This document shows, piece after piece, positions 10,375 to 62,935 of a stretch of 64,000 bases of DNA. The number at the start of each line of letters is the position of its first letter. Position 1 is the stretch's first letter. The stretch is from a bacterium (GTDB taxonomy: Bacteria; UBA8248), in assembly GCA_965207065.1 (NCBI GenBank), contig OZ242260.1:1482551-1546550 (forward strand), in the 5' to 3' direction. The notes under the pieces were generated by a model that was given only the letters and a program-made list of their open reading frames with translations, was not told where the DNA came from and made no database searches. Made by a program: the position numbers and the translations under genes.

Positions 10375-10548
10375 TGACTACCGGAGAACTATCGGCGGAG
10401 TTCCATGCCAAGATACTATGAGGGAATCATCAGTCTCACGCCAGTGACTAGTGCGGCCAATAATGATGGCTTTACCTTCCTGAACCACTCGGACCGGGGA
10501 ATCCGAGTCACGAGTTGTCATTCTCTGAATTCGCACGATCTCACATTT

Positions 10549-35566: not shown

Positions 35567-36804
35567 GACGCGCCTCCCGGCCAGGGCTGCGCAATCTCGC
35601 GAAGCCGTATCGGGTCCGTTCTGGCGTAGATGGAAGTGGTCAGTATACTCCTGTGCCGCAGGAGCGTGGCGATGGTCTCCAGCGTGGCGCCGTCTTCGAG
35701 CAACCGGCAGGCCACCGAATGGCGAAGCAGGTTTACGCCTCCCGATGGAGTATCCTCCAATCCCGCGCGGCGCAGGGCGCTCGCGACGATTGAGCCGACG
35801 ACGGACGAGGAGGAGAAGGGACGCCAGGGCGGACGCATACAGAGGAACACGTGCGGGTCGTCCAACGGCGGCCGCCCGTCCTTCAGCCAGACGAGGATGG
35901 CGTCGCCGACCTCCTGGGGCAGGGGCAGCGTGGCCTCGCGACGCCCCTTGCCCGTGACGCGCAGACGTCCGCGCCGCCAGTCGATCTGCTCGAACGTCAG
36001 GCCGCCGGCGTCGCCCGCCCTGAGCCCCAGCCGGGCGACCAGGAGCAGGAAGGCGAGGTCCCGCCGTCCGATCGCCGTGCCCGTGTCGCAGGAGGCGAGG
36101 AGCCGCTCCACCTCCGCCGCCTTCAGGCCGCGCGGAACGTTGTCGCGCCGCGGCATGACGACGCACGGCACGGCTCTTGCCAATATCGCCGGACACCGGT
36201 CGAGCGCGGCGTTGTACCCGAGCCAGGAGCGTAGCGCCGTCGCTCTCGACTTCCGGGAGGGCAACTTCCCGGACAGACCCGCGTGGGAGAACGCCGCGCG
36301 AAGGTTCGCGGCGTCGTAGCGCGCCGGGTCCGTGCCGACCAGCGGCAGCAGTTGGCTCAGCGCGCACTCGTAGCGCCGCAGGCTCGAGGCGGCCAGCCCC
36401 TTGTGCCGCCCAAGCCAGTCGAGCCAGGCCGCGACCTCCGGCGCCCGTTCCGGCGTTCGCACCGCCGGAGCATCGGTCACCCCGCTCCCTGAGAGGAACC
36501 GCACGAACCTTCGCACCCCGTAGAGGTACCTCTTGCCGGGCGGACGGCGGCGCGCCCCGGGACAGCGGCACTCATGAGCGCCGAAGCGAGCCACATCGCT
36601 CTCGACGGCGTCATCCGGACATCTGCCCGTCAAGTGAAGCCAATGGCAAAAATGCCGGGCTGCCTGAACGTATCCCTCCACCGTCGAGCAAGTGTGATCG
36701 AGTTGGAACAGATGATGCCGGTAGGCGTCGACGTGCCGGGCGTGCGGCCCCATGTCCATCAACCAGCGTCGTGTGACAGGATCGAATCGTGTCGTATCGG
36801 GCAT
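35563..36804 (-). CDS. ritA: Tyrosine recombinase RitA-like
   Basis: 413 aa; C-terminal catalytic region ...LRHSVACRLLEDGATLETIATLLRHRSILTTSIYAR (HxxR...Y). Confidence 0.65.
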   Translation of the reverse strand: MPDTTRFDPVTRRWLMDMGPHARHVDAYRHHLFQLDHTCSTVEGYVQAARHFCHWLHLTGRCPDDAVESDVARFGAHECRCPGARRRPPGKRYLYGVRRFVRFLSGSGVTDAPAVRTPERAPEVAAWLDWLGRHKGLAASSLRRYECALSQLLPLVGTDPARYDAANLRAAFSHAGLSGKLPSRKSRATALRSWLGYNAALDRCPAILARAVPCVVMPRRDNVPRGLKAAEVERLLASCDTGTAIGRRDLAFLLLVARLGLRAGDAGGLTFEQIDWRRGRLRVTGKGRREATLPLPQEVGDAILVWLKDGRPPLDDPHVFLCMRPPWRPFSSSSVVGSIVASALRRAGLEDTPSGGVNLLRHSVACRLLEDGATLETIATLLRHRSILTTSIYARTDPIRLREIAQPWPGGAS

Positions 36805-37772: not shown

Positions 37773-38741
37773 CTATCTATCAGGCCATATTTCAGCATCC
37801 TCGCCCGGTTCTTGATTTGGCCTGAAATCCAGCAGGTAGGTTTCGGGGTCGATTTTCGAGAACGTAACATCTGTCCGGCCATACTCGATGAGGTGATGCC
37901 TCGTCACATACACGCCAGAACCAACACGTAGACGCGCCCTCAAGTAAGCACCGAGCAAACTGTTGTCCTGTGTAGTGTGCAATCCCTTTCCGGCATCTTG
38001 AGCGCGAACACATATGAAGCTGTCGCCATCATCCGTAAGAACCGTGAATTGCTCAAACCTGTCAGGGAAGAATCCACTACGCCCCACGCTTGCGGGAATG
38101 TTGATGTAGGCTTGGTTCGGGTTTCTCCCAGACCTTTGCCCCCAGTTAATGCCCGATCTGGTAGGCGTCTCACCTTCTCTCGAAAGAAGAGTGAGGGTAA
38201 CGCTTTCAAGTGGGCTTCCCGTCTCAAAACCCTTCCGGCTTTGCAGCAAGGTGATCTGAGTGTCGATATGGGGCTGAATGCAGTCCGATGCGTTCCTGAG
38301 AATGAGGTTGTGGAAGTCGTTTGCATCGCATGAATCGGCTGGGGACATGACCTCTATTTGCGCCCTTCCGAATCCCGTCATAGTATAGTTGGCGGAGCCG
38401 CAGAAAGCCTTTATCGGCTCTCCTTTGGCATTCAACCACACATACGATTTAGCATGAACTGGATTGCCTCGAACCACGTATCGGCAAATGAAGTCCGTAT
38501 CCCAGGACGGATGATCCATCATTTTGCAGAATGCGGAATGCTGGGCTTCCTCTATCCCGTGTTGTATCGTCATGCCGATTATGAGTTCTATCGAGATGTT
38601 GAGGTCTAGTTCCTTCAGGTGCTCCATATGCCTGTCGGCCATATTCGCGGTAGCGAATCCGCTGACAATACGCAGGCGCCCTCCGTTCACGTCATACGCG
38701 GGCGATAGCAGGACTTCACGGAAGAGGTCTTCGTGGATCAT
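37773..38741 (-). CDS. Type II restriction endonuclease, PLD (HKD) family with B3-like C-terminal domain (NgoFVII/BfiI-like)
   Basis: HAKSYVWLNAKGEPIKAFCGSANYT = HxK(x4)N(x6)GSxN PLD motif; start overlaps the methylase stop (ATGA). Confidence 0.6.
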   Translation of the reverse strand: MIHEDLFREVLLSPAYDVNGGRLRIVSGFATANMADRHMEHLKELDLNISIELIIGMTIQHGIEEAQHSAFCKMMDHPSWDTDFICRYVVRGNPVHAKSYVWLNAKGEPIKAFCGSANYTMTGFGRAQIEVMSPADSCDANDFHNLILRNASDCIQPHIDTQITLLQSRKGFETGSPLESVTLTLLSREGETPTRSGINWGQRSGRNPNQAYINIPASVGRSGFFPDRFEQFTVLTDDGDSFICVRAQDAGKGLHTTQDNSLLGAYLRARLRVGSGVYVTRHHLIEYGRTDVTFSKIDPETYLLDFRPNQEPGEDAEIWPDR

Positions 38742-39841
38742 ATTGTGAGTTCATAAGCAGGGACGTCATGCTTGACGAGTGAATTCAGGACGGCGCGATA
38801 AACGACCTCCGCGCCCTTCGGTGGAACGGCCATGCCGATTTGCTTTCGCACGGATTCTTTCCCGCCCTCAAAGACAAAGCTGTCGGGAAATGTTTGGAGT
38901 CTCGCCCTTTCTCTATTCGTCAAGGCGCGATTTTCTTCCCAATGATATAGATGCGTTCCACCGCCACCGGAACCAGTAACCGTATAGCTTGGCGCATCCG
39001 GCTTGAGTCTTCTGTAAATTTGGCTGATGGTTGCGCCGCTCTTGAGGTTCAATTTTAGATGCTTGGGCAAATCAGCCGTGAAGGCGTTCTCTCCCGGCTT
39101 GATATGTTTCAACCTCTCGACAACATTTCCAGACTGGTTTGTGCGCTCGTTGTTGGTCGCATCATCCGGTATGTCGCTCAATGCTTCTTTAGCCGTATTG
39201 AAATTATCCATGTGTGTGGGCGCAGGATGCTCGAAAGAATCAATGCCCAGGTCTTTGCGAAAACCGACCACGAACAATCTGTGGCGCGCTTGAGGCACTC
39301 CGTATTCCTCTAGGCGATAGGTGTGCGGGAAAATCGCATATCCGGCTTTTCGCAGGGAAGACAGGATGATGGCAAAGTCTTTATTATCACCGCTCGACTT
39401 GATGCCGCTCACATTCTCGGCTACGAAAAATGCAGGTTTCTTCGCCTTGAGCGCACGCACTCCCCAGATGTAAAGGCCACCATGCTGGCCAGATATACCC
39501 CGTCGCTCTCCTATTACGCTGAAATCATTGCATGGGAACCCGAAGGCCAGCCCGTCAATATCCGCCAGTTCCTTGAAGTCCAAGTCCTTCACATCCCCGC
39601 ACATGACACCGCCTTCCGGCAACGGGATATTATTTTCGAGCGTCTTGCAAGCATCCGCGTCCCTGTCGTTTACCCACACGTGAACGAAACCATGCCCGCC
39701 CACCTTCGCGTTGTGCGCGCCCAGCGTCATGCCTCCTGCACCAGCAAATAATTCACCTATCCGATAGGTCTTGTGATCCGGAGATGGAGCCATAGCGAGC
39801 GCAAGCTGATTGTCGAAGCTCATCCGGTAAGCTCCCGCCAA
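38738..39841 (-). CDS. DNA cytosine-5 methyltransferase
   Basis: Motif I FAGAGG, motif IV GFPCNDFS, ENV, PQARHRLF; 367 aa. Confidence 0.75.
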   Translation of the reverse strand: MAGAYRMSFDNQLALAMAPSPDHKTYRIGELFAGAGGMTLGAHNAKVGGHGFVHVWVNDRDADACKTLENNIPLPEGGVMCGDVKDLDFKELADIDGLAFGFPCNDFSVIGERRGISGQHGGLYIWGVRALKAKKPAFFVAENVSGIKSSGDNKDFAIILSSLRKAGYAIFPHTYRLEEYGVPQARHRLFVVGFRKDLGIDSFEHPAPTHMDNFNTAKEALSDIPDDATNNERTNQSGNVVERLKHIKPGENAFTADLPKHLKLNLKSGATISQIYRRLKPDAPSYTVTGSGGGGTHLYHWEENRALTNRERARLQTFPDSFVFEGGKESVRKQIGMAVPPKGAEVVYRAVLNSLVKHDVPAYELTI

Positions 39842-42420: not shown

Positions 42421-43288
42421 ACCTGAAACCTCTCGTAGCGACCCAGAGGGTTCGACTCCCGCCCGGCAAAGGCGAAGCCGGCCAGCCGGAAGCGAGTCTT
42501 GCATGGCGTGCGGCAACGCCCGTCGTGAAGCGTAGACAGCAGGTGATGAAGCGGCGGGGTAAGCCTCGAAATCGGTCAATCGACGACGCCTTCATTGTTA
42601 ATCGTGTGGGGGCAGCACCGGGAGCGCCGCCAATGGCGAGGCGCAACGGGTCGTCCGGGGTCGTGGGCCGGCGCAAAGTCACGGGACGGGTCGCCAGGGA
42701 ACCTGGGAGATCCTGCTCTTGCCCGTGGGCAAGAACGCTGGAAAGGGGACGGCCAGCGTGAACAATCCAGACCCCGGCCCGTCGCCGGACCTGCACGGCG
42801 GCGGGAGCGCCCCAGGGCGGACACGAACCCGGCAGGCGCCCGCGGAACCGGCTGGCCAAAACAATAAGCCGAAGGACATGCGAGGGTAGGAAGTCGTAGC
42901 GCCCTGATAGTACCGCTGAAGGCGGGGAACCGTGGCCATCGGGACCCGCTGGAGGGAAGCGGGGCGTCATCTGTACAGAACCACTGATGGGAAACGATGG
43001 AGGAAACTCTGAGTTCCACCAACACGTACACGAAACAGCAGTGGATAGCCGAACAGGCGAGGAATGCCTCGACCTGCGGACCAAGGGTGACAACCCCTTG
43101 AGCGAACCTGTCAGGTGAGGAACCGAGTGCGTCAATCGCGCACGCTCGGGTCTGCGGGGGGAGGGGCGCAGCAATGCCCCCTCCTACCCGGCCCTCAAGA
43201 AAAGCGTGTCGAGGCAGACAAAGCTTTCAGTTGGTTTCGTGCTGCAATTTCAGCTTGGCACAATACAAACTTCCGCTACCTTAATGAC

Positions 43289-44227
43289 ATGTTCGACAAT
43301 GGTGGGGTTGAGCATGAGTCCGCCATGGGTGTCGCGCAACATTACCAACTCCCCACTTTTTTAGTGGACTGGACATGGAATCCTTTCGTGGCCTTGGCGT
43401 TCGCCATGTCCGATCTAAGGGATGGTGAAGAGGGCGTGGTCTTTCTTCGAGATTTTGGCGACGGAACTAACCCAACATCCGACTATAACGTTCTTTTGCC
43501 GCCGTCGTTTGCCAAGAGAGCTTGGCGTCAAAGGGCGTTCTTTTCCTGGCATCCAGTTGCTCCTGAGGATTGGGACAATCCGGTCGTGCAGAGAATTGCA
43601 GGGGATATTCCGCGGCATAATGCAATGCCCAACAATTATTATCACATCAAATTTCGTGCGACTGAGAGTGACATAAAATGGGCGAAACAGAGTTATGCTG
43701 GATTGATGAAGGAGGATCTGCCCGGCTTGGGTTGCTTGGCGAAATGGTGTTTAGAAGCCGCACGAAAGGGCGCGAATGGGCCTTTACATCCCAATGTTCT
43801 CTCGTTGGATGATTTCCAGAAATGGTGTAATCGTTGCAACTTGAATTTACCTGAGTTTGTGGTGACGAATCGAGAAGTGGAAGTAACAGAGAACTTTGCT
43901 CTCATGATGGATTATATAGATGAAATGAGCGTTAGGCGTAATCCAAGTAATGGCACAATCGGTTACTTCATTCCGAGTGTGTTAACGGCCTGTGTGGGAA
44001 TGCCATGGAACAGTTGTATGAAGTATCCCGCCCGCGGACTTAAGAACCTGAATGATCCAAGAGCAGATGTTTTCTTTGACGATGATGGGCAACCCTGTAT
44101 GGATCACTGGCATAAAAAGCTGAGCTATATGAAGTCGTTGGTTGACATAAGACGTATACAGAACGACGATTTTTTTCGATCAATGTTTGTAGAACGCCCG
44201 CGGGGAAAGAGGCAACAAATCGGTTAA
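43289..44227 (+). CDS. FRG-domain protein
   Basis: HESAMGVAQHYQLPTFLVDWTWNPFVALAFAM matches the FRG core (QHYGLPTRLLDWT.NPLVALYFA); ~46% GC. Confidence 0.55.
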   Translation: MFDNGGVEHESAMGVAQHYQLPTFLVDWTWNPFVALAFAMSDLRDGEEGVVFLRDFGDGTNPTSDYNVLLPPSFAKRAWRQRAFFSWHPVAPEDWDNPVVQRIAGDIPRHNAMPNNYYHIKFRATESDIKWAKQSYAGLMKEDLPGLGCLAKWCLEAARKGANGPLHPNVLSLDDFQKWCNRCNLNLPEFVVTNREVEVTENFALMMDYIDEMSVRRNPSNGTIGYFIPSVLTACVGMPWNSCMKYPARGLKNLNDPRADVFFDDDGQPCMDHWHKKLSYMKSLVDIRRIQNDDFFRSMFVERPRGKRQQIG

Positions 44228-45440: not shown

Positions 45441-46280
45441 TCACTTGCCGTAGCGCAGCCTTGCCACGGCGCCCTGTTGCGCGAGTTGCCCCTGCGCGTA
45501 GCGCCCAGGCATGGTCGGCGATTGCCAGCGCCCGGCGAGCTGCATCTCGACCAGGGAAGCCCCCGCCGTGGCCAGGCTCTGCGCGCTGCCCACCCGGAGG
45601 CTGTGCCCACTGATCCGCCCCTCCACTCCTGCGTCGCGCGCGCGATGGATGATTATGCGGCGGATGCTCCCCTCGGTTAGACGACCTTTCCGCAAGCAGC
45701 CCGATCTGTGAACGGGCCGGAAAAGCGCCCCCTCCGAGATTGAGGCAATCTCGAGCCAGGTACTGATGCGCACGATGGTGGGTTCTCCCAGAAACTGCAC
45801 GACGCCCGCACCTTCCTGGTCCGTCTTCGAGCGCCGGATGAGCACAGTCTGCTCGTCCAGGTTCACGTCGGAGACGTCCAAAGCTTCCATCTCCGACACC
45901 CGGAGCAACGCGTCGCTCGCCACAGAGATGATCGCGGCGTCGCGTAGTCCGGCCAGATCCCCGAACCTTTCGGCCAGTTCCGCGGCATGGTCCGCTTGCT
46001 CCCAGCGCACCCCGGCCACCTGACCGCGACCGCGCTCATAGGCCAAGCGCCTAAAGCCGGCCAGCACCCGCTCCGTCGCAGGTCCCACGGGCGAGTCCCG
46101 CCCCGCAAGTCTCACCCGGAAGCGAAGCGCCGCCACCGTCAGCGAGGCGGTAGCAGCCGAGCGGCCCTCCTCGTAGAGATCTCCCAGATACGCCGCCACA
46201 CCGACGTCGGTTTCGGGGTGCCCCGAGCGATCAAATCCCCGCAGAGCCGCCCCGTACACCCGACGGGTGTTCTCAGACAT
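45441..46280 (-). CDS. Tyrosine-type site-specific recombinase/integrase
   Basis: ...RRSKTDQEGAGVVQFLGEPT...GHSLRVGSAQSLATAGASLVEMQLAGRWQSPTMPGRY (R...HxxR...Y). Confidence 0.65.
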   Translation of the reverse strand: MSENTRRVYGAALRGFDRSGHPETDVGVAAYLGDLYEEGRSAATASLTVAALRFRVRLAGRDSPVGPATERVLAGFRRLAYERGRGQVAGVRWEQADHAAELAERFGDLAGLRDAAIISVASDALLRVSEMEALDVSDVNLDEQTVLIRRSKTDQEGAGVVQFLGEPTIVRISTWLEIASISEGALFRPVHRSGCLRKGRLTEGSIRRIIIHRARDAGVEGRISGHSLRVGSAQSLATAGASLVEMQLAGRWQSPTMPGRYAQGQLAQQGAVARLRYGK

Positions 46281-46555
46281 CGAGGCCCTCGCCAAGTTTG
46301 CTGCCAGCGGAGCTTGAACCGCTTCCTTGGCCCCGGCGTCTTCGTCAAAGCGAAGTTTCGTGTCGGGCCGGATGGTGATGCTCCCGTCGCCATGATGAGA
46401 GGCCAACCCCCAGGATCGGCGGCTGATTCCTTTACACGAAGCCGTTCGAGCGCCTCGTGTACTAACAAATATAGACAGTTGCGGGGAAATGCCAAGGAAA
46501 AAACGTCGTTCGACGGCACGAAGTCAGGCTCCAAGGCAATGAATTTTCTAAAGAT

Positions 46556-48810: not shown

Positions 48811-49518
48811 ATGAAGATTTGCACAGAAGATATTCAGGCGGAAGTTTCGTTAGTCGAGAGGTCGGATGTCCCACGGCCTCATCCCCCCGGGTTGCCCGCA
48901 ACCGCAGAGGCGTACTGGCGTTCGCTGTACGAGCGCGAGCGTGCGCGCGCGGAGGCGGCGGAGGCGCGCTGCGAGGGGTTGCGGCTCAAGGAGGTGGCTT
49001 CGCGCGCGCGGGCGGGTTCGCTGAAGTGGCATCTCGACAACAGCCGGAGGAAGCTTGCCGCGCGCGTCAAGAAGTTGAAGGAAGTCCGCCGCGCCGCGAA
49101 GCAGGACGTCCTGGCGCTCGAGGCGGAAGTGGCTCGACAGGAGAAGCTTCTCCGCAAAGCCGATGTCGAACCGGGGGAGCGCAGCCCGCTCGAGTCGCTG
49201 CGCAAGGAGATTGAGCGGTGGAAGGAGGCGCACGCCCGGCTGAAGAACCGGCTGGCCTGGGAGAAGCGGGAGACGCTCAGGCGAACGTTGAAGTCGTCCG
49301 AACCCGTCAAGTCACCGACCGAGACCGCCGTCCCGTCCCGAGCGACGCAGCGCGCGCCCGCGCAATCGAACGTCTCCCCGACGAGCGTCGCGCCCCCGCC
49401 TTCAAGCAAATCGCGGGCATGGGTACTGGTGAGGAGCAGCGCGTCGGCGCGCCCGATGTGGGACGACTGGATCTTCGTCACAGAACCGCCGATCCGTCGT
49501 CTCGACGGAGTTGTCTGA
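48811..49518 (+). CDS. Coiled-coil hypothetical protein
   Basis: Arg/Glu/Ala-rich heptad-like region; no motifs. Confidence 0.25.
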   Translation: MKICTEDIQAEVSLVERSDVPRPHPPGLPATAEAYWRSLYERERARAEAAEARCEGLRLKEVASRARAGSLKWHLDNSRRKLAARVKKLKEVRRAAKQDVLALEAEVARQEKLLRKADVEPGERSPLESLRKEIERWKEAHARLKNRLAWEKRETLRRTLKSSEPVKSPTETAVPSRATQRAPAQSNVSPTSVAPPPSSKSRAWVLVRSSASARPMWDDWIFVTEPPIRRLDGVV

Positions 49519-49666
49519 TGGTCTGCACCGGCGAGAAGCCAACCTGTCATAAAAAAGTGGCGGCCATGGACATGAAGCCATACAATAGAAGGCAGATATC
49601 ATAGAGGTATGGGGAAAAAGATTACCGGAAGCTGCACGAGTCGGCATCGCGAGAAGGAATCAAATC

Positions 49667-52006
49667 ATGCGGGAAAGCGCACAGAACATGACATCCAAGT
49701 CGAAGTCCGGTTTTTTCGATCTGGTAGTGGGTCGATACTTCTGGACGATAGCCGTCACATTCCTGGTGACCGCGGTTCTCGCCGCGGGAGTGCAGCACCT
49801 GATTACCGTCAATGTAGGCATCCGAAATCACTTCGATGAAGATGATCCGCATTTGATCAAACTCGACGATTTCGAAAAGACCTACGCAGTGTCGGACAGC
49901 GTGCTCGTCATTGTCGCCCCGCCGAACGACACCGTTTTCACGCGCAAAGCACTCGATGCGATTGAGCAACTGACGGAGGTGTTGTGGCAAACGCCTTATT
50001 CTGTCCGTGTCGATTCGATAACCAATTACCTGCACACCGAGGGAATCGAGGACACCCTGATTGTCGAGCAGCTGGTCGACGATGCGGCTTCGCTGGACGA
50101 GGTCAAACTCGCCCGCATTCGAGAGATTGCGCTCACCACACAGGAAACGGCCGGCCGTTTCGTCTCTCGCGATGGTCGTGTGGCCGGGCTGATCGTGAGC
50201 CTGGCAATTCCCGATGAGAAACGGAAACAGCGCAAAATCGAAGTGGTCGACGGTCTCTACGGTCTCGTCAACAAACAGCGCGCGGCCAACCCCGACATCG
50301 AATATCACATCTATGGTGAACTGTTGTTGAATCGGGCGGTTCGCGAGGCGCTGAATGAAGATATGTCCTTTTTGGCGCCAATCGCGTTTGCGATGATGGT
50401 TCTGGTGGCCATTCTATTGCTGCGTTCGGTTTGGAGCGTTTGTGGAATTTTTGCGATGATAATTGCGGTGATGGCATCGAGTTTCGGTTTAACCGGCTGG
50501 TTCGGATTGAAATTCTATGCGGAAAGCGGCGCCGCGGTATTCGTTCTGATGGCGATTGCCATCGCACACTCTGTCCACCTGATCGAAGGAATGACCGATG
50601 GAATGCTTCGTGGAATAGAACGTAAAGCCGCTGTTGTTCATTCCCTGCAAATCAATGCCCATCCGATATTCCTCACTTCGCTCACCACCATGGTCGGTTT
50701 TCTGAGCCTGAATTTCTCGGAAATGCCCCCGTTTCGAGTGATGGGAAATATCGTTGCGTTCGGCGCCATGTGCGCATTCGTTTACGCGGTCACGCTTTTG
50801 CCCGCATTGTTGGCGATGATGCCCATGCGGGCGCCCGCCGAAAAGAGAAACGGAACGAAAACATTCAAGCGTTTGGGAGATTTCGTCGTTTCCAAAAGCA
50901 CCTTGTTGCTTTGGGCTTTCGTCATACTCGTTCTGGTGAGCGCATATGGCGTCTCGAGAATTAAACTGAATGACAACAACAACGCCAAGCTGCTTAATGA
51001 AAGCTACGAGTTGCGCCGATCGGGGGATTTCATAAACGAGAACTTTTCCGGGCTGGATTCCTTTGAATATTCCCTGATCTCCGGGCGTGCAGGGGGAATC
51101 ACCGACATTGAGTACCTGCATCGGGTGGATTCGTTCGCCAATTGGCTTCGCGAACAGCCTGAAGTTTCTCACGTCACCTCGATTGCCGATATCATGAAGC
51201 GGATTAATCAGAATCTGCACAATGACGCAAAAGGCTCCTATGCCCTGCCGGCAAACTCCGACCTTGCGGCGCAATACCTGCTTTTATACGAGTTCTCTCT
51301 ACCGGTCGGCCGCGACATAAACAATCTCATCAACTTTGAGCGTTCGGCGACCCGGATGACCGTCGTGATCGGGGGAATGTCGGTCAAAGAGCAAATCGAG
51401 CTGGACAATCGCGCTTCTGCCTGGCTGGGAAAAAATGCGCCGCAAATGCGAACCGGAGCGACCGGCGTCACCATTGTCGGCGCTTACTCGGTGATGAGAA
51501 ACATCGTGAACATGTTACTCGGCACCTTCATCGCAATCTCGATCGTCTCGCTGCTGTTGATTTTTGCATTCAAAAGCCTTCGTTTGGGGCTTCTGAGCTT
51601 AATACCTAATTTCGTTCCGGCAATCATGTCCCTGGGGGCTTGGGGTTACGCCGTGGGAACCGTGAATATTGCGGCGTCAATCGTTACCGCGATAGCGTTT
51701 GCCATCGTTGTGGACGATACCATCCATCTCCTGTCCAAATACCTAAAATCACGCGCAGAGGGCAAATCACCTTCCGAAGCTATCGCGCCGACTTTCGAAC
51801 TCGTTGGAAAACCACTACTAAGCACAACCTTGATTTTTGCGGTGGCGTTTTTCGTCTTTGGCGCATCGGGGCTAGTGACCAATCAGACGCTCGGGTTGCT
51901 GGTCGGAATGACGGTCATCATTGCGCTCGTTGCGGACCTCTTTTTACTACCGCCGCTTCTGCTGGCGCTCGACAGGACGAAACACGGGCAAGCGCTCGGC
52001 GACTAG
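49667..52006 (+). CDS. RND-superfamily (MMPL/HpnN-like) lipid exporter
   Basis: 779 aa with 12 predicted TM segments in a 1+5/1+5 arrangement and two large periplasmic loops. Confidence 0.65.
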   Translation: MRESAQNMTSKSKSGFFDLVVGRYFWTIAVTFLVTAVLAAGVQHLITVNVGIRNHFDEDDPHLIKLDDFEKTYAVSDSVLVIVAPPNDTVFTRKALDAIEQLTEVLWQTPYSVRVDSITNYLHTEGIEDTLIVEQLVDDAASLDEVKLARIREIALTTQETAGRFVSRDGRVAGLIVSLAIPDEKRKQRKIEVVDGLYGLVNKQRAANPDIEYHIYGELLLNRAVREALNEDMSFLAPIAFAMMVLVAILLLRSVWSVCGIFAMIIAVMASSFGLTGWFGLKFYAESGAAVFVLMAIAIAHSVHLIEGMTDGMLRGIERKAAVVHSLQINAHPIFLTSLTTMVGFLSLNFSEMPPFRVMGNIVAFGAMCAFVYAVTLLPALLAMMPMRAPAEKRNGTKTFKRLGDFVVSKSTLLLWAFVILVLVSAYGVSRIKLNDNNNAKLLNESYELRRSGDFINENFSGLDSFEYSLISGRAGGITDIEYLHRVDSFANWLREQPEVSHVTSIADIMKRINQNLHNDAKGSYALPANSDLAAQYLLLYEFSLPVGRDINNLINFERSATRMTVVIGGMSVKEQIELDNRASAWLGKNAPQMRTGATGVTIVGAYSVMRNIVNMLLGTFIAISIVSLLLIFAFKSLRLGLLSLIPNFVPAIMSLGAWGYAVGTVNIAASIVTAIAFAIVVDDTIHLLSKYLKSRAEGKSPSEAIAPTFELVGKPLLSTTLIFAVAFFVFGASGLVTNQTLGLLVGMTVIIALVADLFLLPPLLLALDRTKHGQALGD

Positions 52007-52185
52007 CTTCCGGGACGTTTCGTGATGGCGTAGGTCGAAGGCATGAGGCCGTCGAAGCGCCGATCAGGCCGGGGTAGTTCCGCCGGTGTCTCGCGAGCAA
52101 ACTTCCGCCCGTCCGCGTCCACGTTTGCGGCATGCCTTCATTCTCGATAGCGTCCGTATTGCCGGTCAGGCCTGCAGGAGCACCT

Positions 52186-54216
52186 TCAAGCCGAAATTTC
52201 GCGCAACTGGCTTGCGATGCGCAGCCGAAGTTTCTTCGTAACCGACAATGCCGGGAACGGGTTGATTTTCAGCTTATAGTCTTTAGGCGGCAGCGCGAAC
52301 TCGAAATGATGCGCTATAACCAACACGGTAACCGTCAACTGCAAATGCATCCATGCCCATCCTGCGCACGAGTGGGTATCCAAGCCGTTCGGAGCGTATC
52401 CAGGACCTTGATGCTCATTGCGCGGCGGCAGGTAACGGTCGATATCGAATTCGTAGGGGTCTGCGAAGCAATCACTCATGTAGTGCGCCGCGGTTTGCAC
52501 AATGTACAACCGTTCCCTGAGCGGCAGTGAATAATTTTCCACGACGCAAGAACTTGCGACATCGCGAAGATGTATGCAGATAATCGGATACATTCGTAAA
52601 CATTCCATGAGAAAACGTCTGGTAACGTCATACTTGTCCGGCGAAAACTCGTCTTTATCCGGGTCGCCGCCATCGAAAAGCGCGTTTGCCTCTTCACGAA
52701 TTCTCGCCGTAATTTCCGGCTGTCTGGCCATTTCATAAAGCACGAATCCCAACATGTCCCCTAGATAAATACTTTGAAACACAGGCGTTACCGCCAGCAT
52801 GAACAGCAGGTTTTGCTCCGGGATAAACTGCGGGTCGCTGTTGTGCAGAGAAATCAGTTCGTCCGCCAGATCCTCGGCAACACCTGCGCGGTGAATGGGT
52901 ATATGGTTCTGCTCGATGCGCCGCAGGAGTTTCTCGTAAAGCTGAAAGCGATACTTCATGCCGGGAGTGCGCGTCAGGAATTTCGGCAGAAAATCCGCAA
53001 CGTAGCAAAGGATTGCTCTTTCATTCCATTTGACCAGATCTTCAAATACATCTTGCGAATCCGTACTAATAAGAACCTGAGACATTTGAAAATTGGTCAT
53101 CAACCGGGTATCTCGCTGTACTTCTAGTCTCGAGCCCGCCTGCCACTCTTGACTTATCATGAATTGGCGGCTCAGTCGGAACATATCATCCAGCCTCTCA
53201 TAGAAACTGGCTTTCGAGTAAATTCTCCCCATCAGCTTGCGCAATCGAAAATGATCGGCTCCGTCCATCGACGGCAGTAAATTGTTTGCGCCGCAAACCA
53301 TCTCCATCTTGCGAAAAAAATTGCCGGAAGTTAAAAACCTTCGGGAATTTCGACGCACCCAATGATTGATATCAGGTCCAGCCAAAAATGTTCGCGGCTC
53401 TTGAAACGGCGCACAGATTTGAAAGACCGGACCATATCGGTCGGCCAGATTTCCGAACAGCGCCGGCAGGTTGCCGTCCCACAAATGCCGATTTGCAAGC
53501 AAGCTCTTTAGGGGAATCTTCGGAATTGGTTTTGTGAGGGGTGAGTGTTGCAATGCAGGCGTAATGGCGACTTGCTTGACGGCAGTGGAAATGACCCGGT
53601 TGAGCAGTTCCGTTTTACAAACCAGGTCAATTCGCTTTTTCTCTTCCTCATCCAGCTCGAAAATAAATTTAATGATATCGCACGCATCCAAAAGACCGAT
53701 TATCAGGGAATCCCTCGGGTCCGGAATGATATCCGTGAAAATCACCTCCTCGATTCTCGATTTGATGTACCTTCCGACGCTCTCGCTTCGGGGATAACGT
53801 TCCAATTCCGCATGCCAGGCGCAGTGGTTCGTTGTGTAAAACTCACCATCATGGCGCGTCAGAATTTCGGACTTGAGCAAGTGCTTCAGCGTAGCATCGA
53901 TGATGTCTTCCGAATGAACTGCAAGCCGCTCAATCCAGTATCGCGGTTCTTCCAGATTGGGATGGGATGCGATCTCTTCCAGGCATAAATCCAGTGCCAG
54001 GTCGCCTGTTTTGGTTGAATCCAGGAGAAAAAGCGATTCTTCATCTGTATCAACGCGTGATTTCAAGGAGAGATCGGCCAGAACAGCGCCGATGGTGGCG
54101 CAGTTCAACGTCCAGCCCTCCACTTGGTGGAAATAACCGTTCTGCTCGTTGAGAATCGTCAGGATGAATTCTTGCGGGATATTCAACGATTGCTTCGTTA
54201 TCATGTTACACTCCAT
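52186..54216 (-). CDS. GPP34 (GOLPH3-like) domain fused to a cytochrome P450 domain
   Basis: N-terminus ...LNCATIGAVLADLSLKSRV...; C-terminus ExxR (ECLRMYP), PERF-like DRYL, haem loop NGLDTHSCAGWAWMHLQL; the in-window start is probably MECNM/MITKQ (the upstream extension is junk). Confidence 0.6.
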   Translation of the reverse strand: MECNMITKQSLNIPQEFILTILNEQNGYFHQVEGWTLNCATIGAVLADLSLKSRVDTDEESLFLLDSTKTGDLALDLCLEEIASHPNLEEPRYWIERLAVHSEDIIDATLKHLLKSEILTRHDGEFYTTNHCAWHAELERYPRSESVGRYIKSRIEEVIFTDIIPDPRDSLIIGLLDACDIIKFIFELDEEEKKRIDLVCKTELLNRVISTAVKQVAITPALQHSPLTKPIPKIPLKSLLANRHLWDGNLPALFGNLADRYGPVFQICAPFQEPRTFLAGPDINHWVRRNSRRFLTSGNFFRKMEMVCGANNLLPSMDGADHFRLRKLMGRIYSKASFYERLDDMFRLSRQFMISQEWQAGSRLEVQRDTRLMTNFQMSQVLISTDSQDVFEDLVKWNERAILCYVADFLPKFLTRTPGMKYRFQLYEKLLRRIEQNHIPIHRAGVAEDLADELISLHNSDPQFIPEQNLLFMLAVTPVFQSIYLGDMLGFVLYEMARQPEITARIREEANALFDGGDPDKDEFSPDKYDVTRRFLMECLRMYPIICIHLRDVASSCVVENYSLPLRERLYIVQTAAHYMSDCFADPYEFDIDRYLPPRNEHQGPGYAPNGLDTHSCAGWAWMHLQLTVTVLVIAHHFEFALPPKDYKLKINPFPALSVTKKLRLRIASQLREISA

Positions 54217-54284
54217 TCCTCGTGATTTGATTCTTTCTCGTGATGCCGATTCCTGCGGCTTCCGGTCCCCTTTTTTCCATCCCT

Positions 54285-57200
54285 CTACGAGATCTTCTTT
54301 GCCGTTCCGGTTCCGCCGTCCGGCTTCATGTCCACAGCCGCCACTCTTCCAGCCATGACGCGTTGACTTCTCGCCGGTAATATCATGCTCTTTCGTCGCT
54401 TCCGGCGACGCTGCTCGTAGAGACCAAGCGCGTGCAGGGGGAAATACTGGCGGTAGAGCACGTAATCCAGGAGCGCCGTCCGAAAAAAAACGCCGGGCAT
54501 GTCCTGCTTGGGCCAAGTCCCGTCTGCTTCCTGCGTATTAAGCAGGAAGCCAGCGCCCCGGGAAATCGCGGCCCAGTCTGTTTCGTCCGCCTTGAGGAGT
54601 GCTATCAGCGCCCACGCGGTCTGTATGACCTGGCTTTCCTGATGCGGGACGTAGCAACCGCTTAGGCAGCCGCTGTGGTGTTCGCCCCATCCCCCGTCTG
54701 GCTGCTGGCGCTCCAGCAGCCAGCGGCAAGACGCGCGCAGCGCCGGATCGCTTGGACCGGCCCGGTCCGAAACAAGGCCCCAGATGCCGAAAAGGGTGCC
54801 GTAGATGTACTGGACCCCCCATACGCCGCGCCAACTGCCGTCAGCCATCTGGTTCCGTCGCAACCACAAGGCGCCCCGGGCGATGGAGTCGGCAACCACT
54901 GACCTGTCGCCAATTTCAGGAAATCGATCCCGGCAGACAGCCAGCGCCGCGATACAAGACGCGGTACATTCGACAAAAGAATGCTCGGTCATCGATTCGC
55001 CGAACATCTCTGCAGGATTCAAGCGCTCCAGATCAATTGCCGAGCGCCTGGCCTCATAACTGCCGAAGCCGCCGTCGGGGTTCTGGCTTCGCAACATAAA
55101 GCCAATCGCTTCGCTGAGCACGGACGAGTCCGTGTCGTCTCCGTGGGCGGCGACGAGTCCAAGCACCGCCTGCGCCGTGCAGTCACTCACCGGCCAGCCA
55201 TGCCACCCACCGGCGAAGCACCAGCCGCCTTTGGGGTCAGCGCGGTAGGCTTCACGAAACCGTTCAAAGCTGATCTTGATCTGTTCGCCGAGCAGAAAAT
55301 CGGCGCCGCGCCGGAGCGCATCCCGAACACGGTCCGTCTCAGGCATGGTAGCCAGAGCCTGCAGCGCGAACCCGGTATCCCACGAAGCGCTTCTTGCTCC
55401 GGTGACCCGCAAGCCGTCGTCTTCGTCTTCCCATATCCAGGAATCCATTTTCGATAGCGCCCTTCGGCAATCGGTATCGTCCGGATCGTGCAGCCACAGC
55501 GCCAGAATGTTGAGAATGCCGCTGACTGGAGAGATGCTCGTATGGCTGGTGGTCTGCAGTTCCCATCTGATCTGCCCGAGAATTGCATCCATGCACCGTG
55601 TGCGCAGGTGTTTGCTGTGGAACCGCTCGACCAGCCGTGCAAATCTATATCCGAGCCTGAGCCAGACGGACGGCCTTGCAAAAAGATCGGCATCCCGAAG
55701 CCGGTTCCTAGCGGCGAGAAAATCGGCCCTGGCAAAACCTTGCGGATAAAGCTCTTCCCGCAACGCAGCGATAACTGGTGTGACGGGCGCCTGGTACCGG
55801 CGGGCATAAATCGACGCCATCGCCATATAGATGAGCCGTGTATGGCAGTACCAGTTGGAGGGATGCAGCGGTATCTTCCGCGGCAGGCTCCACAATTCCG
55901 GCAGAACAGCGTTCACGCCGTTCCAATCATAAAGATTAAGGAGCGCCAGCCAGAATTTTCCCCAGCTCGGAATGCCGAGAATCCCCTCGGCCTGAATGAA
56001 CCGCCGGGCCGGCGCGATCAGGGGGTCATCCGGCTCTACACCGAGCAGCCGCGCCGCGACATAAACGAGGGCGGTGACGAACAGATGGGGCGACGAATGC
56101 TCGTGCAGGCCCCATGAACCGTCTTGGAGACGGGTCCTCTCAAACGAGTGCAGCACCCGGCGCCGCTTTCCCGGATCGAGCGGCTGGCCGATGATGTGGT
56201 GGAGCAGTACGTATTGCGCCGTGAGCATGGGACACCAGACCATCTCGCCTTCCCAGTCGCCGTCCTCTCTCTGCAGTTGCACGAGGCATTGGGCGGCGCT
56301 TTCCAGCGCCGGACCGGCATCGGGCGAATCGACCTCTCCGGCGCGGGCGGGCCGCTCCGATTCGGTTTTCGAAGGGATGGTATAGGGGAATGCCCGTCGT
56401 AGGTGCTCTCGCGCTTTCGCGCTTTCCTCCCTTCCTTCCCTGGCCGCCTCCCTCAACTGGCGGATGCCGAGCAGCAACCACCAAAGGCGAGCAGCCAACG
56501 CGCGAAAGTTCACCAATATCCGACGCCATAGAAACCTGCGGATGGAGAAGGTTGTCTCCCGGCTCATTGCCCGCGCGACAGTTTCGCAAAAGGAGAAAAC
56601 CGTCATTGGCATGGACAACTCTTGGCAGGCAAGTATCCGCATGGTCCGGTCCCGATACCCCGAATTCGCTCGCCAGCCCTGGTAAACGGCCTTTCTGAGC
56701 ATAACCGATTCGGTGCGGTAATCGGTCAACACCTCATAAAGCCCCATGGCAAGGAACTCGGGAATACGGGTCGCCTGGAACCGCTTTGCGGTGAATTGCT
56801 GGAAGTCCTCGCTTTCGGAGAGCGCCAGCGCATCGCCGAAGCCGAGAGTCATGCCGACTGCCGTCATGGGATGATAGTGTCCGGCCGCATCGCCGATAAG
56901 CACCCGGTGCGGGTTCCCGTACGTGACACGCGGTCTCAACTGGTTGGCGGCGGCATAGAATCGCCTGACGTGCAGCGCTTCGACGAAGGCCGGCCCGAGA
57001 TTTCCTGGAAGCAGCCTGCCATAGGATTCAGACAAGAAACTTATCCGGTCCTTGGAATTCCAACAATCCAATGGGACATCCAGGTTGACCCGGACGGAGC
57101 CGTTCGCAAGTCCGTAAATGAAAATTGGACCCGGCCCACCCAGAACCAGATGGCCGTATCCTTCAAACAGCAGGTCGGCGTCGTGTAACGTCACCCCGAG

Positions 57201-57718
57201 CATCCGCGAACAGAGCATCGGGTCCATGGAATATCCCAAGGATCTGCGCACGATCGAAGCGCGGCCGTCGGCGCCGATAATTCGGTCGACATTTATGGCG
57301 CATTCCAAGCCATTTCTCGAGAAGGTAATCCGTTCGTCTTCAACGACATTGACCCGCGCGTGGGAAATGAAATCGACATTGGCCTCGTTCTCAATGACCT
57401 CGCGGAGGCTTGAAACGAGCAGCGCGTGGTCGCATACCAGACCCCGTGAACCGTCTGGATAAGGAAGCAGGATCGGGTCGGAGTCGTCGTCGGGCAGCAC
57501 CACGAAACCGACGCCCGACTTGCTGCCGGACAGCGTGTCGACATCAATCCCGATGTCACGCAACAACTTCACTCCCGGCGGATGCAACCATTCGCCTGCA
57601 AGGCGTTTAGACGCTTTCGGATTCGCTTCGAGCAGGGCCACCTTAACGCCCTTGCGCGCAAGGACAATTGCGCATACGCTTCCCACCGGTCCCGCGCCGA
57701 TAATGGCGGCATCATACT
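54285..57718 (-). CDS. Bifunctional squalene monooxygenase (FAD) - oxidosqualene cyclase fusion protein
   Basis: N-terminal domain: YDAAIIGAGPVGSV (FAD GxGxxG), GEWLHPPG (cf. GELLQPGG), IIGADGRASIVRRSL, IGDAAGHYHPMTAVGMTLGFGD (squalene-epoxidase GD motif). C-terminal domain: QW-type repeats, GWPVSDCTAQAV (OSC catalytic VxDCTAE motif), GGWGEH. Single frame with no stop; the likely start is GTG at ~57718 (the track Met at 57839 adds an Arg/Ser-rich junk extension). Confidence 0.7.
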
Positions 57719-57729
57719 TCGGCACCGAG

Positions 57730-59016
57730 TCAGCGCTCCTCAAAGGGCGCTGAGTACAGCGCGGCGGCGGTTGTGAAGGGCAGGTCGCCGTCCTGGATCG
57801 AGAGCAGGAACGTTTCCGGACCCTCGATCTCGTCATCATGCTCGGTGGGAATAGAGAAGCGGTACCGGGGCCACCCCGCCGGGATAGTCAAATTGTAGGG
57901 GCCGCCCGTGTAGTCCCCTTGTTCCGACGCGGTCTGGTCCGTGTTCACCAATGTAACAGTTGTATTCGTGAACCGAGGCCACGAGAACATCAGTTTCCAT
58001 CTCGAGCACCTCGCCTTTGGCCACCGAGTTGGCGTTGTCCAGATACTCAACACGCTTGTCAGGTCGCTGTGCGTCACGGTCTGCTGGCCGGCGTGCCCAC
58101 GGGCAGGCCGCAGGCGACGTTGGTGTTGCTTGCCCTCGCTCCCGAAAACGACGTTCAGCGTCCCTTCGTAGGCGTTGCCTTCTTCTAGGTTCGCCACTGG
58201 GGTGAGCATGATGAGCGCCTACTGCACCACGTTCGTGGCGAGGCCGGTGAAGGTCAGAGTCAGGTCACTTCCCGTACCGGACACCGTAACGCTGGTTCCG
58301 GTGGTGGCGTAGGAGTAGTCCGAGGTCACGTGATTGGTGTTGCGGACGGTGGTCGAGTTAGTGCCTATGCCGATGGAGAAGTGCGCCACGTCGTCCGTCA
58401 GCAGCCGCTGGCCGAGCTTGACCCTGACCTGCGCCGTGTCGGTCGCGTCGCCTTCGGTCATCCACGTATCCATCGCCTCGAAGGAGACCGTGACCTGCGC
58501 GGTGGCCTCGTCGGCAAAACCCGCCGACAGCAGGACAGGCAACAGCAAGGACAGGAAGAGACGGTGCGGGGAAAAGGTGGTCCGTTTCCAGGGCGTGCGT
58601 CCCGGGGCGCCGATTCTTTTGCGGAGTCCGGAAGCCGCGCCGCGCGGACCGGAGCGGCGGGAAAACTCAGGCGGTGAGGCTGGAAGGCAAAGGCAGCGCC
58701 GCCATGCGGTAACGCTCATGGCCGACGTTCGGTTCGGTTCGGTTCGGTTCGGTTCGGTTCGGTTCGGTTCGGTTCGGTTCGGTTCGGTTCGGTTCGGTTC
58801 GGAGAACATGGTGAAGAACGCTCTCGTCCGGCTTGTCAAGCCCTGATATGAAGCTTTTCTGCTATTGAAGAAGGCCCGAAAAACCAAGGGGAATGTTGCA
58901 AGGCGGCGCGCATCTTCGGTCTCCTTAAAGAATGGGAATAATTCAGCAAAGTTAACAAAGATTTTAGAGATTAACTTCATCATTGAGTTCATCGAATCTT
59001 GATCCTGAATGGTCAA
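57730..59016 (-). pseudogene. Secreted Calx-beta domain protein with in-frame stop (58219-58221), preceded in frame by a (TEPNR)n repeat
   Basis: Signal peptide ...HRLFLSLLLPVLLSAGFADEATAQ, then Calx-beta-like VTVSFEAMDTW...; the second half MLTPVANLEEG...GEGDYTGGPYNLTIPAG... is in the same frame after a stop. Confidence 0.45.
58726..58802. repeat. Pentanucleotide microsatellite (GGTTC)14-15, i.e. (GAACC)n on the coding strand
   Basis: Read directly; lies between an upstream ATG (MFSEPNRT...) and the signal peptide of the Calx-beta gene. Confidence 0.9.
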
Positions 59017-59334
59017 ATTAAGCGTTTATGTTTGCAAATGCTTCTTTCATATCTTGAGCCGTTATCCGGTTCCTTGCATAGATTCATACTATTCATTTTT
59101 GTATTGGCGTCAGCCGGAACGGATCGGGCCGAATGCCGCTTAACCTATGAGTTTTGGAGTGGGCTCCTGCGTATTCACTCGAGAATGAGGGCTTGTATTT
59201 CGAAAGCGATCCCATTATCGGGTCAACCCGCAAACCATGTTGCATTGAATACCTTGGCTATGTCAACGAAATTTGTCAAGAAAAATTGATTTGAAATATT
59301 TGGCATCATGAGCGCCCAGAAGCGATGGCGCCGG

Positions 59335-62310: not shown

Positions 62311-62435
62311 ATTCATCGGTACGCATCGTTTACGGGTGAACCGTTATCGAGGCGGCTCTGCATAATGGCGCGCATTGTCCGGACGCCGATGCCGTAAGAG
62401 TTTTTTATAAAACAATTCATTCCAATAATCCCGGC

Positions 62436-62935
62436 AATTCGGGCGCGACTTCTGAGATATTCCGGTTGATTTGTACGATTTCCTCCTCTCGTCCGTCCCG
62501 ATCCATTTTGCGTATGATGGCCTGCGCCGCGAACATCGCGGAGCGAAGCAGGTGGATTTCCGCCTCGGTTCGCGGCCATTCGCGACGCTCCAGGGCCTCC
62601 ATCGCGAGTTCGACCACGAGTCTGTCGGGTGAATTTTCCCGCCATTCGGCTTCTTTTCGAGGCGCTTCCACTGATCTGATTTCACCATGACGTTGATTTG
62701 TATCGTCCGGAGCACCGGTTTTGCTGCTTCTTCATGAAATTTTTCACCCTGATCGATCGCAAAACGGGCCGGAAAAATCCCGTTTTCTGCATCGGGTGCA
62801 CTACATTTTGAGCGCGTGCACCTTCAAATTGCCCCGGCCCATGAGATACCAGACTGGTATCCATCATAGCGCAGCGCAGGCCTGCTCGATACCAATTCAG
62901 TATCTCCGCAGGGGAAAGGCCATTCGCTGCTACCG
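62436..62935 (-). repeat. Copy E of the RHH-element repeat (ORF broken by frameshifts)
   Basis: Same AATTCGGGCGCGACTTC end; ...SPDRLVVELAMEALERREWPRTEAEIHLLRSAMFAAQAIIRKMDRDGREEEIVQINRNISEVAPELPG; hairpin AAAACGGGccggaaaaatCCCGTTTT. Confidence 0.6.

Follow-up and report, generated by a model that had tools for sequence, protein, structure and literature searches.

The window analyzed here, a stretch of 64,000 nucleotides, carries on its minus strand a gene in which a squalene monooxygenase (SQMO) and an oxidosqualene cyclase (OSC) are joined by a flexible tether. We estimate at roughly 85% the probability that its product genuinely combines two enzymes in one polypeptide and belongs to the MsbE or “fused SMO-OSC” family. 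Both enzymes lie in a single frame, their domain identities and catalytic motifs are recognizable, and the whole is strongly conserved across hundreds of genomes. Fusions of this type have been described before and are frequent among bacteria associated with sponges, and the present gene is another member of that known family. Its host is probably a sponge-associated bacterium as well.

A single reading frame in a widespread family

The fusion ORF spans positions 54285–57839 on the minus strand and comprises 1184 codons and a stop, with no internal stop codon, which bears out the original prediction that one uninterrupted ORF encodes both enzymes. Those limits are correct for the maximal ORF but probably not for the coding sequence, which would start at GTG 57725 (54285–57725, minus strand; 1146 aa plus stop), leaving the 38 codons back to ATG 57839 (57726–57839, minus strand) as a 5′ extension that is probably untranslated. 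The GTG is favored because a GAGGAG motif lies 9 nt upstream of it, because the resulting product is 100% identical to a database protein of 1146 aa (P0001), because it abuts the stop of an upstream ORF (57730–58209), and because the 38-aa extension, which overlaps that same ORF, is unconserved among relatives. No Shine-Dalgarno motif was seen for a start at ATG 57839.

In cultured sterol producers the two enzymes are encoded by adjacent but separate genes, as the original prediction held and as is the case for MCA2872/MCA2873 (PMC4919349), and a stop codon lost, or a frameshift introduced, during sequencing or assembly could have merged two such neighbors. This artefact is effectively refuted by the recurrence of the same single frame in all 80 best homologous loci, many at chromosome level, as well as in over 120 protein clusters defined at 90% identity. 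In addition, the ~100 residues that separate the Pfam domains can be aligned and show partial conservation (e.g., the invariant R413), and L001, which together with L002 is the nearest record (both are unclassified MAGs), shows 96.8% identity over the whole block.

Relatives of the fused protein occur in at least 539 species-level genomes. The best 80 loci, which are separate genome records except for two (L003 and L004) from one MAG, are all full-length fusions distributed over many phyla, many of them from sponge microbiomes, and each gives one continuous match across the junction (residues ~3–1110). The junction is likewise present in every member of a 50-sequence family alignment with a mean column identity of 75%, fused relatives at 44–48% identity retain WPVSDCTA, and all fused cyclase domains fall in a single sub-clade of a neighbor-joining tree. 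Many relatives carry sponge-symbiont names, and many of the 80 loci bear bin-style labels (jk18x, p16x, SB06xx, APA/CAR/RHO) resembling those of sponge-metagenome MAGs. The same architecture appears in published annotations, as MsbE in 2020 (PMC7074536) and as “fused SMO/OSC homologs” in Brown et al. 2023 (PMC10070321). Kelly et al. 2022 mapped the gene cluster across 10 phyla, called the gene LSS, inferred horizontal transfer and found the “LSS” gene of Ircinia symbiont clusters to be under purifying selection, with an omega of 0.17 (PMC9531527). The suggestion that the fusion was undescribed therefore fails, since close homologs show it to be common. Our literature search retrieved no biochemical assay of any fused member.

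The two enzymes and their tether

By domain identity, the N-terminal half is a complete squalene monooxygenase, with epoxidase activity predicted from its sequence. Its FAD-binding and substrate-binding domains (aa 1–305; 56811–57725, minus strand), delimited with Pfam, human SQLE (6C6N) and motifs, contain all of the anticipated squalene epoxidase fingerprints (GxGxxG, GEWLHPPG and GDAAGHYHPMTAVGMTLGFGD). In 1146-aa numbering the motifs of these domains are GAGPVG at 10–15, GEWLHPPG at 44–51, GADGRAS at 151–157 and GDAAGHYHP at 278–286; in 1184-aa numbering GAGPVG stands at 48–53, GEWLHPPG at 82–89 and GDAAGHYHPMTAVGMTLGFGD at 316–336. Pfam FAD_binding_3 matches at ORF aa 42–341 (1184-aa numbering) and the SE profile (PF08491) at ORF aa 188–416, scoring 73.1 bits against a gathering cutoff of 20.1. 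Among solved structures, this half is closest to human SQLE (phmmer, E 4.3e-26), the next match, the probable FAD-dependent monooxygenase 6SW1 (E 1.2e-8), lying ~18 orders of magnitude behind. The C-terminal helical domain (aa ~306–445; 56391–56810, minus strand) was delimited from AF2 helices, at 308–334, 338–353, 355–365, 372–397, 400–429 and 436–445 (pLDDT 54–84), and from Kyte-Doolittle hydropathy. Its borderline-hydrophobic helix at ~397–420, with a Kyte-Doolittle peak of 1.55 centered on residue 412, is presumed to associate with the membrane. From squalene, O2 and a reductant, the N-terminal half would produce (3S)-2,3-oxidosqualene.

One feature of this half could be taken as a sign that it is inactive as a squalene epoxidase and serves instead as a flavoprotein monooxygenase for another substrate, or as a scaffold or membrane anchor, with oxidosqualene supplied from elsewhere. 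The Q168/Y195 pair of human SQLE, reported as critical and in which Y195F abolishes more than 90% of the activity (PMC6327030), is replaced by H48 and F74. The modest Pfam SE score and the restriction of the phmmer alignment with human SQLE to residues 6–299 point the same way. However, the first position is His in all 54 bacterial relatives compared, including 27 standalone epoxidases of 420–530 aa, and the second is Phe in all but one, which has Leu; the substitution is therefore a clade trait rather than decay. The GxGxxG, DG and GD motifs are intact, and their core residues do not vary among 50 family members. No other solved structure comes close to SQLE as a match, and the N-terminal half is conserved as strongly as the C-terminal one. 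Moreover, related clusters that otherwise encode a complete post-squalene pathway contain no second SE-like gene. We thus regard an inactive epoxidase half as very improbable and retain the assignment as a squalene monooxygenase.

The C-terminal half (aa ~471–1110; 54396–56315, minus strand), delimited with Pfam and TIGRFAM models, human LSS (1W6K) and motifs, is a complete cyclase of the OSC rather than the squalene-hopene cyclase (SHC) type, whose activity is predicted on the same grounds. SQHop_cyclase_N (PF13249) matches at ORF aa 513–807 with 182.6 bits and SQHop_cyclase_C (PF13243) at 817–1142 with 184.2 bits (each E ~1e-54). The features first claimed for this half are all present: QW repeats (three canonical motifs at 988, 1035 and 1094 in 1184-aa numbering, plus partial ones), the catalytic VSDCTAQ (aa 846–852 of the 1146-aa protein and 884–890 of the 1184-aa ORF; window 55170–55190), and the lack of the SHC motif DxDD/DxDDTA, which is absent from the fused ORF. 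VSDCTAQ aligns with human D455, the His232 equivalent lies in WYCHTR (625–630), VECTAS occupies 918–923, and the equivalents of human LSS Asp455, His232, Cys456 and Cys533 are all kept. The scoring of OSC against SHC gave a consistent answer, with 720.8 bits for the OSC model TIGR03463 vs. 265.2 for the hopene cyclase model, and an E of 7.5e-134 to human LSS, over LSS residues 67–724, vs. 4.7e-51 to the A. acidocaldarius SHC. The TIGR03463 score stays below the curated cutoff of 851, and the broader TIGR01787 passes (504 vs. 322.7). The Asp of VSDCTA would protonate the epoxide and thereby trigger cyclization to a protosterol.

This protosterol is most likely lanosterol, because the position equivalent to human 453, within WPVSDCTA, is Val. 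In bacteria, 453 was the only position of the classical lanosterol triad that tracked with the product, Val yielding lanosterol in every strain tested and Ile marking cycloartenol (PMC4919349). Judged by the remainder of that triad, cycloartenol, parkeol, an arborane-type triterpenol or a product of 2,3;22,23-dioxidosqualene might be considered: the triad is not matched, position 449 being His, a cycloartenol-type residue, and position 381 being Ala, which fits neither type, and the TIGR03463 score falls under its cutoff. A product of this kind appears unlikely, however, as the Val is conserved throughout the family (WPV[S/T]DCTA in 119 of 120 sequences), the authors of MsbE made the same lanosterol call (PMC7074536), and most related clusters contain CYP51, ERG24 and C-4 demethylation genes, which act on lanosterol-type substrates.

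Between the two enzymes lies a flexible, Pro-rich tether of ~25 residues (aa ~446–470; 56316–56390, minus strand), recognized from AF2 disorder and from the alignment, with pLDDT below 50 and no secondary structure at 452–465. It is poorly conserved, yet present in every member of the 50-sequence alignment. The AF2 model of the fused protein is only moderate (pLDDT 72, pTM 0.51) and therefore lends no support to a fixed domain arrangement, a defined interface or an inter-site tunnel. Channeling of oxidosqualene between the fused halves would be a plausible benefit, and the fused members pose the question of whether joining the enzymes improves flux or reduces oxidosqualene leakage. Both halves are expected to be monotopic on the cytoplasmic membrane, so that the fusion would enforce a 1:1 stoichiometry and hold the enzymes together there.

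Genomic neighborhood and possible role

The fused gene resides in a recombinase-rich island, a setting unusual for the family. At E <= 1e-8, tblastn gave no match in the 64-kb window for msbA-D (SDR, Rieske, ERG24 and CYP51) or the SMT gene. The downstream neighbor (52186–54216, minus strand) encodes a GPP34-cytochrome P450 fusion protein of 676 aa, identified by the Pfam GPP34 and p450 domains, with CYP51s as its nearest relatives among solved structures (E 2e-14). It matches the published “GPP34_L” architecture, which was reported to be exclusive to sponge symbionts and considered a candidate phagocytosis effector (PMC11706023); the words “sterol” and “cyclase” are absent from that paper. 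Convergent with this gene is one (49667–52006, plus strand) for an HpnN/HAE3-like RND transporter of 779 aa with a sterol-sensing domain (Pfam MMPL, Sterol-sensing and Patched), whose NCBIfam HAE3 and HpnN matches are all below cutoff and whose BstA match is very weak. The transporter gene is co-conserved with the fusion. In 20 of the 80 loci, as in the window, the fusion has a full-length GPP34-P450 gene no more than 10 kb away, and all three genes occur together in roughly one in four related loci. No description of a link between the three was found in the literature search.

Two arms of an inverted repeat flank these neighbors. Arm A (49527–49672) is directly upstream of the RND transporter gene and runs into its start; it contains a remnant of the 3′ end of the fused gene. 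Arm B (54218–54378) is directly upstream of the GPP34-P450 gene and reaches into the fused gene, overlapping its final ~31 codons. Most of the non-conserved C-terminal tail of the fused protein (aa 1111–1146 plus stop; 54285–54395, minus strand), defined by the loss of alignment conservation after residue ~1110, is encoded inside arm B, from 54378 down.

The physical linkage of the three genes is observed, and we tentatively propose, at somewhat less than even odds, that the fusion, GPP34_L and the sterol-sensing RND transporter may be functionally coupled as one compact, horizontally mobile sterol module of three genes for making, modifying or binding, and exporting sterols, distinct from the msb or steroid gene clusters. 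Such a reduced context within an island suggests a minimal mobile module for sterols, and also a sterol-related role for GPP34-P450 proteins, which are currently read as phagocytosis modulators. If the proposal is right, GPP34_L would be a sterol-pathway protein in which a P450 related to CYP51 is attached to a domain that binds lipids, and the sterol clusters and GPP34_L, two genomic signatures of sponge symbiosis published separately, would belong to one and the same system.

The fused enzyme could feed a specialized pathway, such as one leading to sarasinoside-like steroid saponins or to a host-directed sterol, rather than supply sterols for the membranes of its own cell. The sarasinoside aglycone has been proposed to derive from MsbE (PMC7074536), the present gene has a P450 gene and one for an exporter-like RND transporter as neighbors within an island-like, mobile region, and the gene spreads across phyla within sponge microbiomes (PMC9531527). 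On the other hand, the nearby genes in the window include no identified glycosyltransferase or other tailoring gene, RND proteins of the HpnN/BstA type (NCBIfam names, with matches below cutoff here) move hopanoids or sterols to the outer membrane of their own cell, and strong purifying selection together with a broad distribution fits a housekeeping membrane role equally well (PMC9531527). A specialized role is thus a possibility of some weight, if the lesser one. Fused genes would give uncultured sponge symbionts of many phyla a sterol-making capacity that bears on the origin of sponge sterols and on the interpretation of sterane biomarkers (PMC10070321, PMC9531527).

Comparison with known sterol systems

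MsbE (PMC7074536), likened here by its description, resembles the window protein in having a FAD epoxidase at its N-terminus and, at its C-terminus, a cyclase that carries the lanosterol-type Val. Its cluster runs in the order NAD(P) oxidoreductase, Rieske, sterol reductase, CYP51, fusion and SMT (PMC7074536), and this order (msbA-F) surrounds the fusion in most of the 80 homologous loci, whereas the window copy is without msbA-D and SMT within 64 kb and is flanked instead by the GPP34-P450 and RND genes. Sponge-associated gammaproteobacterial homologs are ~65% identical to the window protein. The Ircinia “clusters of steroid genes” (ERG24-CYP51-LSS; PMC9531527) and the homologs of Brown et al. 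(PMC10070321) belong to the same gene family; the former assignment agrees with the LSS codon alignment of 3765 positions, a length that fits the fused protein (PMC9531527), and Kelly et al. found MT026193.1 (MsbE) to be the best match for such clusters (PMC9531527). They label the gene only LSS/ERG7, and in their cluster it is invariably preceded by ERG24 and CYP51, which the window lacks.

Methylococcus capsulatus (MCA2872/MCA2873), Gemmata obscuriglobus and myxobacteria have the same two enzymes with the same catalytic motifs, and the bacterial SQMO signature GEW[LIV]HP...GF is common to standalone and fused forms. Standalone relatives are 38–51% identical to each half. The cultured producers make two polypeptides from adjacent genes (PMC4919349), whereas the window encodes one. 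With respect to the human enzymes LSS (1W6K) and SQLE (6C6N), the fusion keeps the LSS catalytic residues named above and the FAD motifs, and AF2 predicts for it a C-terminal helical domain; it differs from SQLE in having His/Phe in place of Q168/Y195, in being without the N-terminal regulatory domain, and in joining the two enzymes in one protein.

A continuous reading frame for two sterol enzymes

The minus-strand ORF at 54285-57839 runs for 1184 codons with zero internal stops, which bears out the original prediction that squalene monooxygenase (SQMO) and oxidosqualene cyclase (OSC) are encoded in a single frame. The cited motifs GAGPVG, GEWLHPPG, GDAAGHYHPMTAVGMTLGFGD and VSDCTAQ were all found, the claimed QW-type repeats are represented by three canonical QW motifs, and the DxDDTA motif typical of squalene-hopene cyclases (SHCs) is absent, as had been stated. 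Translation probably starts at GTG 57725, yielding a protein of 1146 aa, because an identical 1146-aa protein (P0001) exists in a public collection, because GAGGAG sits 9 nt upstream of this GTG, and because the 38 extra codons reaching to ATG 57839 are unconserved and would overlap an upstream ORF. Residue numbers hereafter refer to the 1146-aa protein, and Pfam ranges to the 1184-aa ORF. Neither of the upstream ORFs (58219-59016, minus strand, and 57730-58209) shows a significant family match, and conservation of the two is confined to L001, a homologous locus from another genome. The first of these ORFs, which is unannotated, contains a perfect (GTTCG)n microsatellite of pentanucleotide units, ~95 nt long (58717-58812), a short way upstream of the fused gene.

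The N-terminal half matches the Pfam domains FAD_binding_3 (aa 42-341) and SE, the squalene epoxidase domain (aa 188-416; 73.1 bits for a cutoff of 20.1), and its GxGxxG, DG and GD motifs are all intact. Its closest solved structure is human SQLE (E 4e-26), the runner-up being ~18 orders of magnitude weaker, and the proposed squalene epoxidase identity is thereby upheld. H48 (codon at 57582-57584) and F74 (57504-57506) occupy the positions of Q168 and Y195 of human SQLE, a pair reported to be essential in the human enzyme, in which Y195F causes >90% loss of activity (PMC6327030). Decay of the epoxidase half was considered as an explanation and rejected, since the same residues recur across the bacterial clade: of the 54 bacterial SQMO relatives inspected at 50% clustering, which include 27 standalone proteins of 420-530 aa, every one carries His in place of Q168 and, with the exception of a single Leu, Phe in place of Y195. 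The two residues are thus a trait of bacterial SQMOs rather than a sign of decay in the fusion and, judging from these substitutions, bacterial SQMOs must organise the Q168/Y195 region of the active site unlike human SQLE.

The C-terminal half carries both squalene/oxidosqualene cyclase domains of Pfam (aa 513-807 and aa 817-1142, both with an E-value of about 1e-54) and scores above the cutoff of the general cyclase model TIGR01787. Its assignment as an OSC rather than an SHC stands: the OSC model TIGR03463 gives 720.8 bits, under its cutoff of 851, vs. 265 bits for the hopene cyclase model, and human lanosterol synthase (LSS) aligns over its residues 67-724 with an E-value of 7.5e-134, vs. 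5e-51 for squalene-hopene cyclase. The equivalents of the catalytic Asp455 and of His232, Cys456 and Cys533 of human LSS are kept. In bacteria, the cyclization product was reported to track with residue 453 alone (human numbering), Val at this position predicting lanosterol (PMC4919349). The cyclase half has Val453, and lanosterol is the probable product, though not a certain one because positions 381 (Ala) and 449 (His) are both atypical.

An AF2 model of moderate quality (pLDDT 72, pTM 0.51), built from a 50-sequence family alignment, retains the C-terminal helical domain of the epoxidase as helices across residues 308-445, followed by a Pro-rich, low-confidence tether (~446-470) and by the cyclase from ~residue 471. 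The protein is thus modelled as a complete SQMO tethered to a complete OSC. Neither a defined domain interface nor a tunnel between the active sites was demonstrated in this model, whose domain orientation is not interpretable at a pTM of 0.51. Hydropathy of the fused protein revealed no clear transmembrane segment; one borderline-hydrophobic helix (~397-420) precedes a highly charged helix.

Distribution and published record of the fusion

A word-indexed protein search retrieved 561 relatives, the best 120 clusters of which (65-100% identity, 1044-1184 aa) all possess both halves, and an exhaustive search at 50% clustering added more fused clusters, 44-48% identical, in which WPVSDCTA is retained. 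When one genome was scanned for each species, at least 539 genomes proved to encode a relative. Residues ~3-1110 are matched in a single continuous stretch, at 62-96% identity, in 80/80 of the best loci from these genomes. Such continuity across both halves in many genomes effectively excludes an assembly artefact; the fusion is real and common. According to record titles, the best 80 loci include Paracoccaceae, Rhodospirillales, several orders of Gammaproteobacteria, Nitrospirales, Nitrospinaceae, Binatia, Thermodesulfobacteriota, Acidimicrobiia, Acidobacteriota, and Opitutales, and many titles bear explicit names of sponge symbionts (Spongia_Bin9, lac_sponge TsSOB, Ca. Poriferihabitaceae, Ca. 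Porisulfidus, Ca. Rariloculus).

In a rough neighbor-joining tree of cyclase domains, calculated with no bootstrap support, all fusions fall into one sub-clade of bacterial OSCs, within which just two standalone sequences are placed, a topology that fits a single origin of the fusion. The database proteins P0161 and P0163 nest within the fused clade. Degenerate OSC halves occur in P0164, whose catalytic Asp is replaced by Lys, and in P0168. Outside the window, 13 further clusters of 1030-1200 aa (P0228, P0232, P0244, P0247, P0249, P0259, P0264, P0272, P0275, P0278, P0282, P0294, and P0298) combine an N-terminal half resembling SQMO (39-46% identity, GEW[LI]HP...GF retained) with a C-terminal half of ~650 aa that does not align with cyclases and has neither DCTA nor DxDD. 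They represent other SQMO-domain fusions, likewise uncharacterised.

The fusion is already known to the field through the description of the msb locus, in which MsbE is a fused SE/OSC (Mohanty et al., 2020, PMC7074536), and through Brown et al. (2023, PMC10070321), who refer to “fused SMO/OSC homologs.” Kelly et al. (2022, PMC9531527) examined 537 Ircinia MAGs and described “clusters of steroid genes” (ERG24-CYP51-LSS) in 115 of them, spread over 10 phyla; they inferred horizontal transfer and measured an omega of 0.17 for “LSS.” In GenBank their best match was to the msb locus from a Melophlus symbiont, and their LSS codon alignment of 3765 positions is of a size that fits the fused gene, though the authors make no comment on this fit. 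The original prediction held the fusion to be undescribed; given how common it is among close homologues and in the face of these publications, that novelty is unsupported. No biochemical characterisation of any fused member was found in the literature.

Genomic context of the fused gene

Immediately downstream of the fusion lies the gene for a GPP34-P450 protein of 676 aa (52186-54216, minus strand), convergent with that for an HpnN/HAE3-like RND transporter (49667-52006, plus strand) bearing a sterol-sensing domain (SSD). The nearest solved relatives of the P450 domain are CYP51s, albeit distant (E 2e-14). The protein was rejected as the cluster's own CYP51 on the grounds of its 22-29% identity to msbD-type CYP51 over partial alignments only, its extra GPP34 domain and its presence alongside a genuine CYP51 at several loci. 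This architecture corresponds to “GPP34_L,” which has been reported from sponge symbionts exclusively and interpreted as possibly modulating phagocytosis, in a paper that nowhere mentions sterols or cyclases and draws no link to sterol genes (PMC11706023). Its tight linkage to the SQMO-OSC gene, full-length copies lying within 10 kb in 20 of the 80 related loci as well as in the window, suggests a sterol-related role.

Over positions 49321-59327 the window shares 96.8% identity with L001, compared with only ~76% over a neighbouring flank. An inverted repeat of ~150-170 nt with arms ~80% identical (49527-49672 and 54218-54378) brackets exactly the RND and GPP34-P450 pair; each arm consists of a remnant of the 3′ end of the fused gene, a shared leader and the first codons of the gene that it precedes. 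In L003 and L004, which stem from one MAG, and in L006, the bracketed segment lies the other way round with respect to the fused gene. The repeat may serve as a common regulatory leader, as an inversion substrate, or as both. Outside the window it can be detected in L001 and L002 alone, and it was rejected as a general feature of the pair.

Beside the sterol block, positions 1-48000 form an island-like mosaic, which comprises a serine recombinase (30392-32467, plus strand), two tyrosine integrases (34649-36571 and 45441-46406, both minus), a C5 cytosine DNA methylase (38738-39841, minus) and an FRG-domain protein (43115-44227, plus). A weak match to a DDE transposase, under the Pfam cutoff, lies at 1755-2930 (minus). 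GC content varies from 0.50 to 0.70 across the window, in which a tRNA scan found no tRNA genes. A stretch of ~220-315 nt from L001 (7276-7590) matches three sites of the window at 74-85% identity (10548-10768, 27399-27712, and ~62430-62750), which suggests a dispersed repeat or small mobile element.

A typical relative, the Nitrospirales locus L033, follows the published order of a 3-beta-HSD-like SDR, Rieske, ERG24, CYP51 and the fusion, with an SSD-type RND transporter and SMT also nearby. A tblastn survey located SDR, Rieske, ERG24, and CYP51 genes upstream of the fusion in most of the 80 loci. In the window and in ten other loci (L001-L004, L006, L007, L023, L043, L050, and L057), the flanks of the fused gene contain none of these four genes and have the GPP34-P450 and RND transporter genes instead, and ten further loci hold both sets. 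The fused gene adds a new and uncharacterised member to a known enzyme-fusion family, and its gene context is a less common one.
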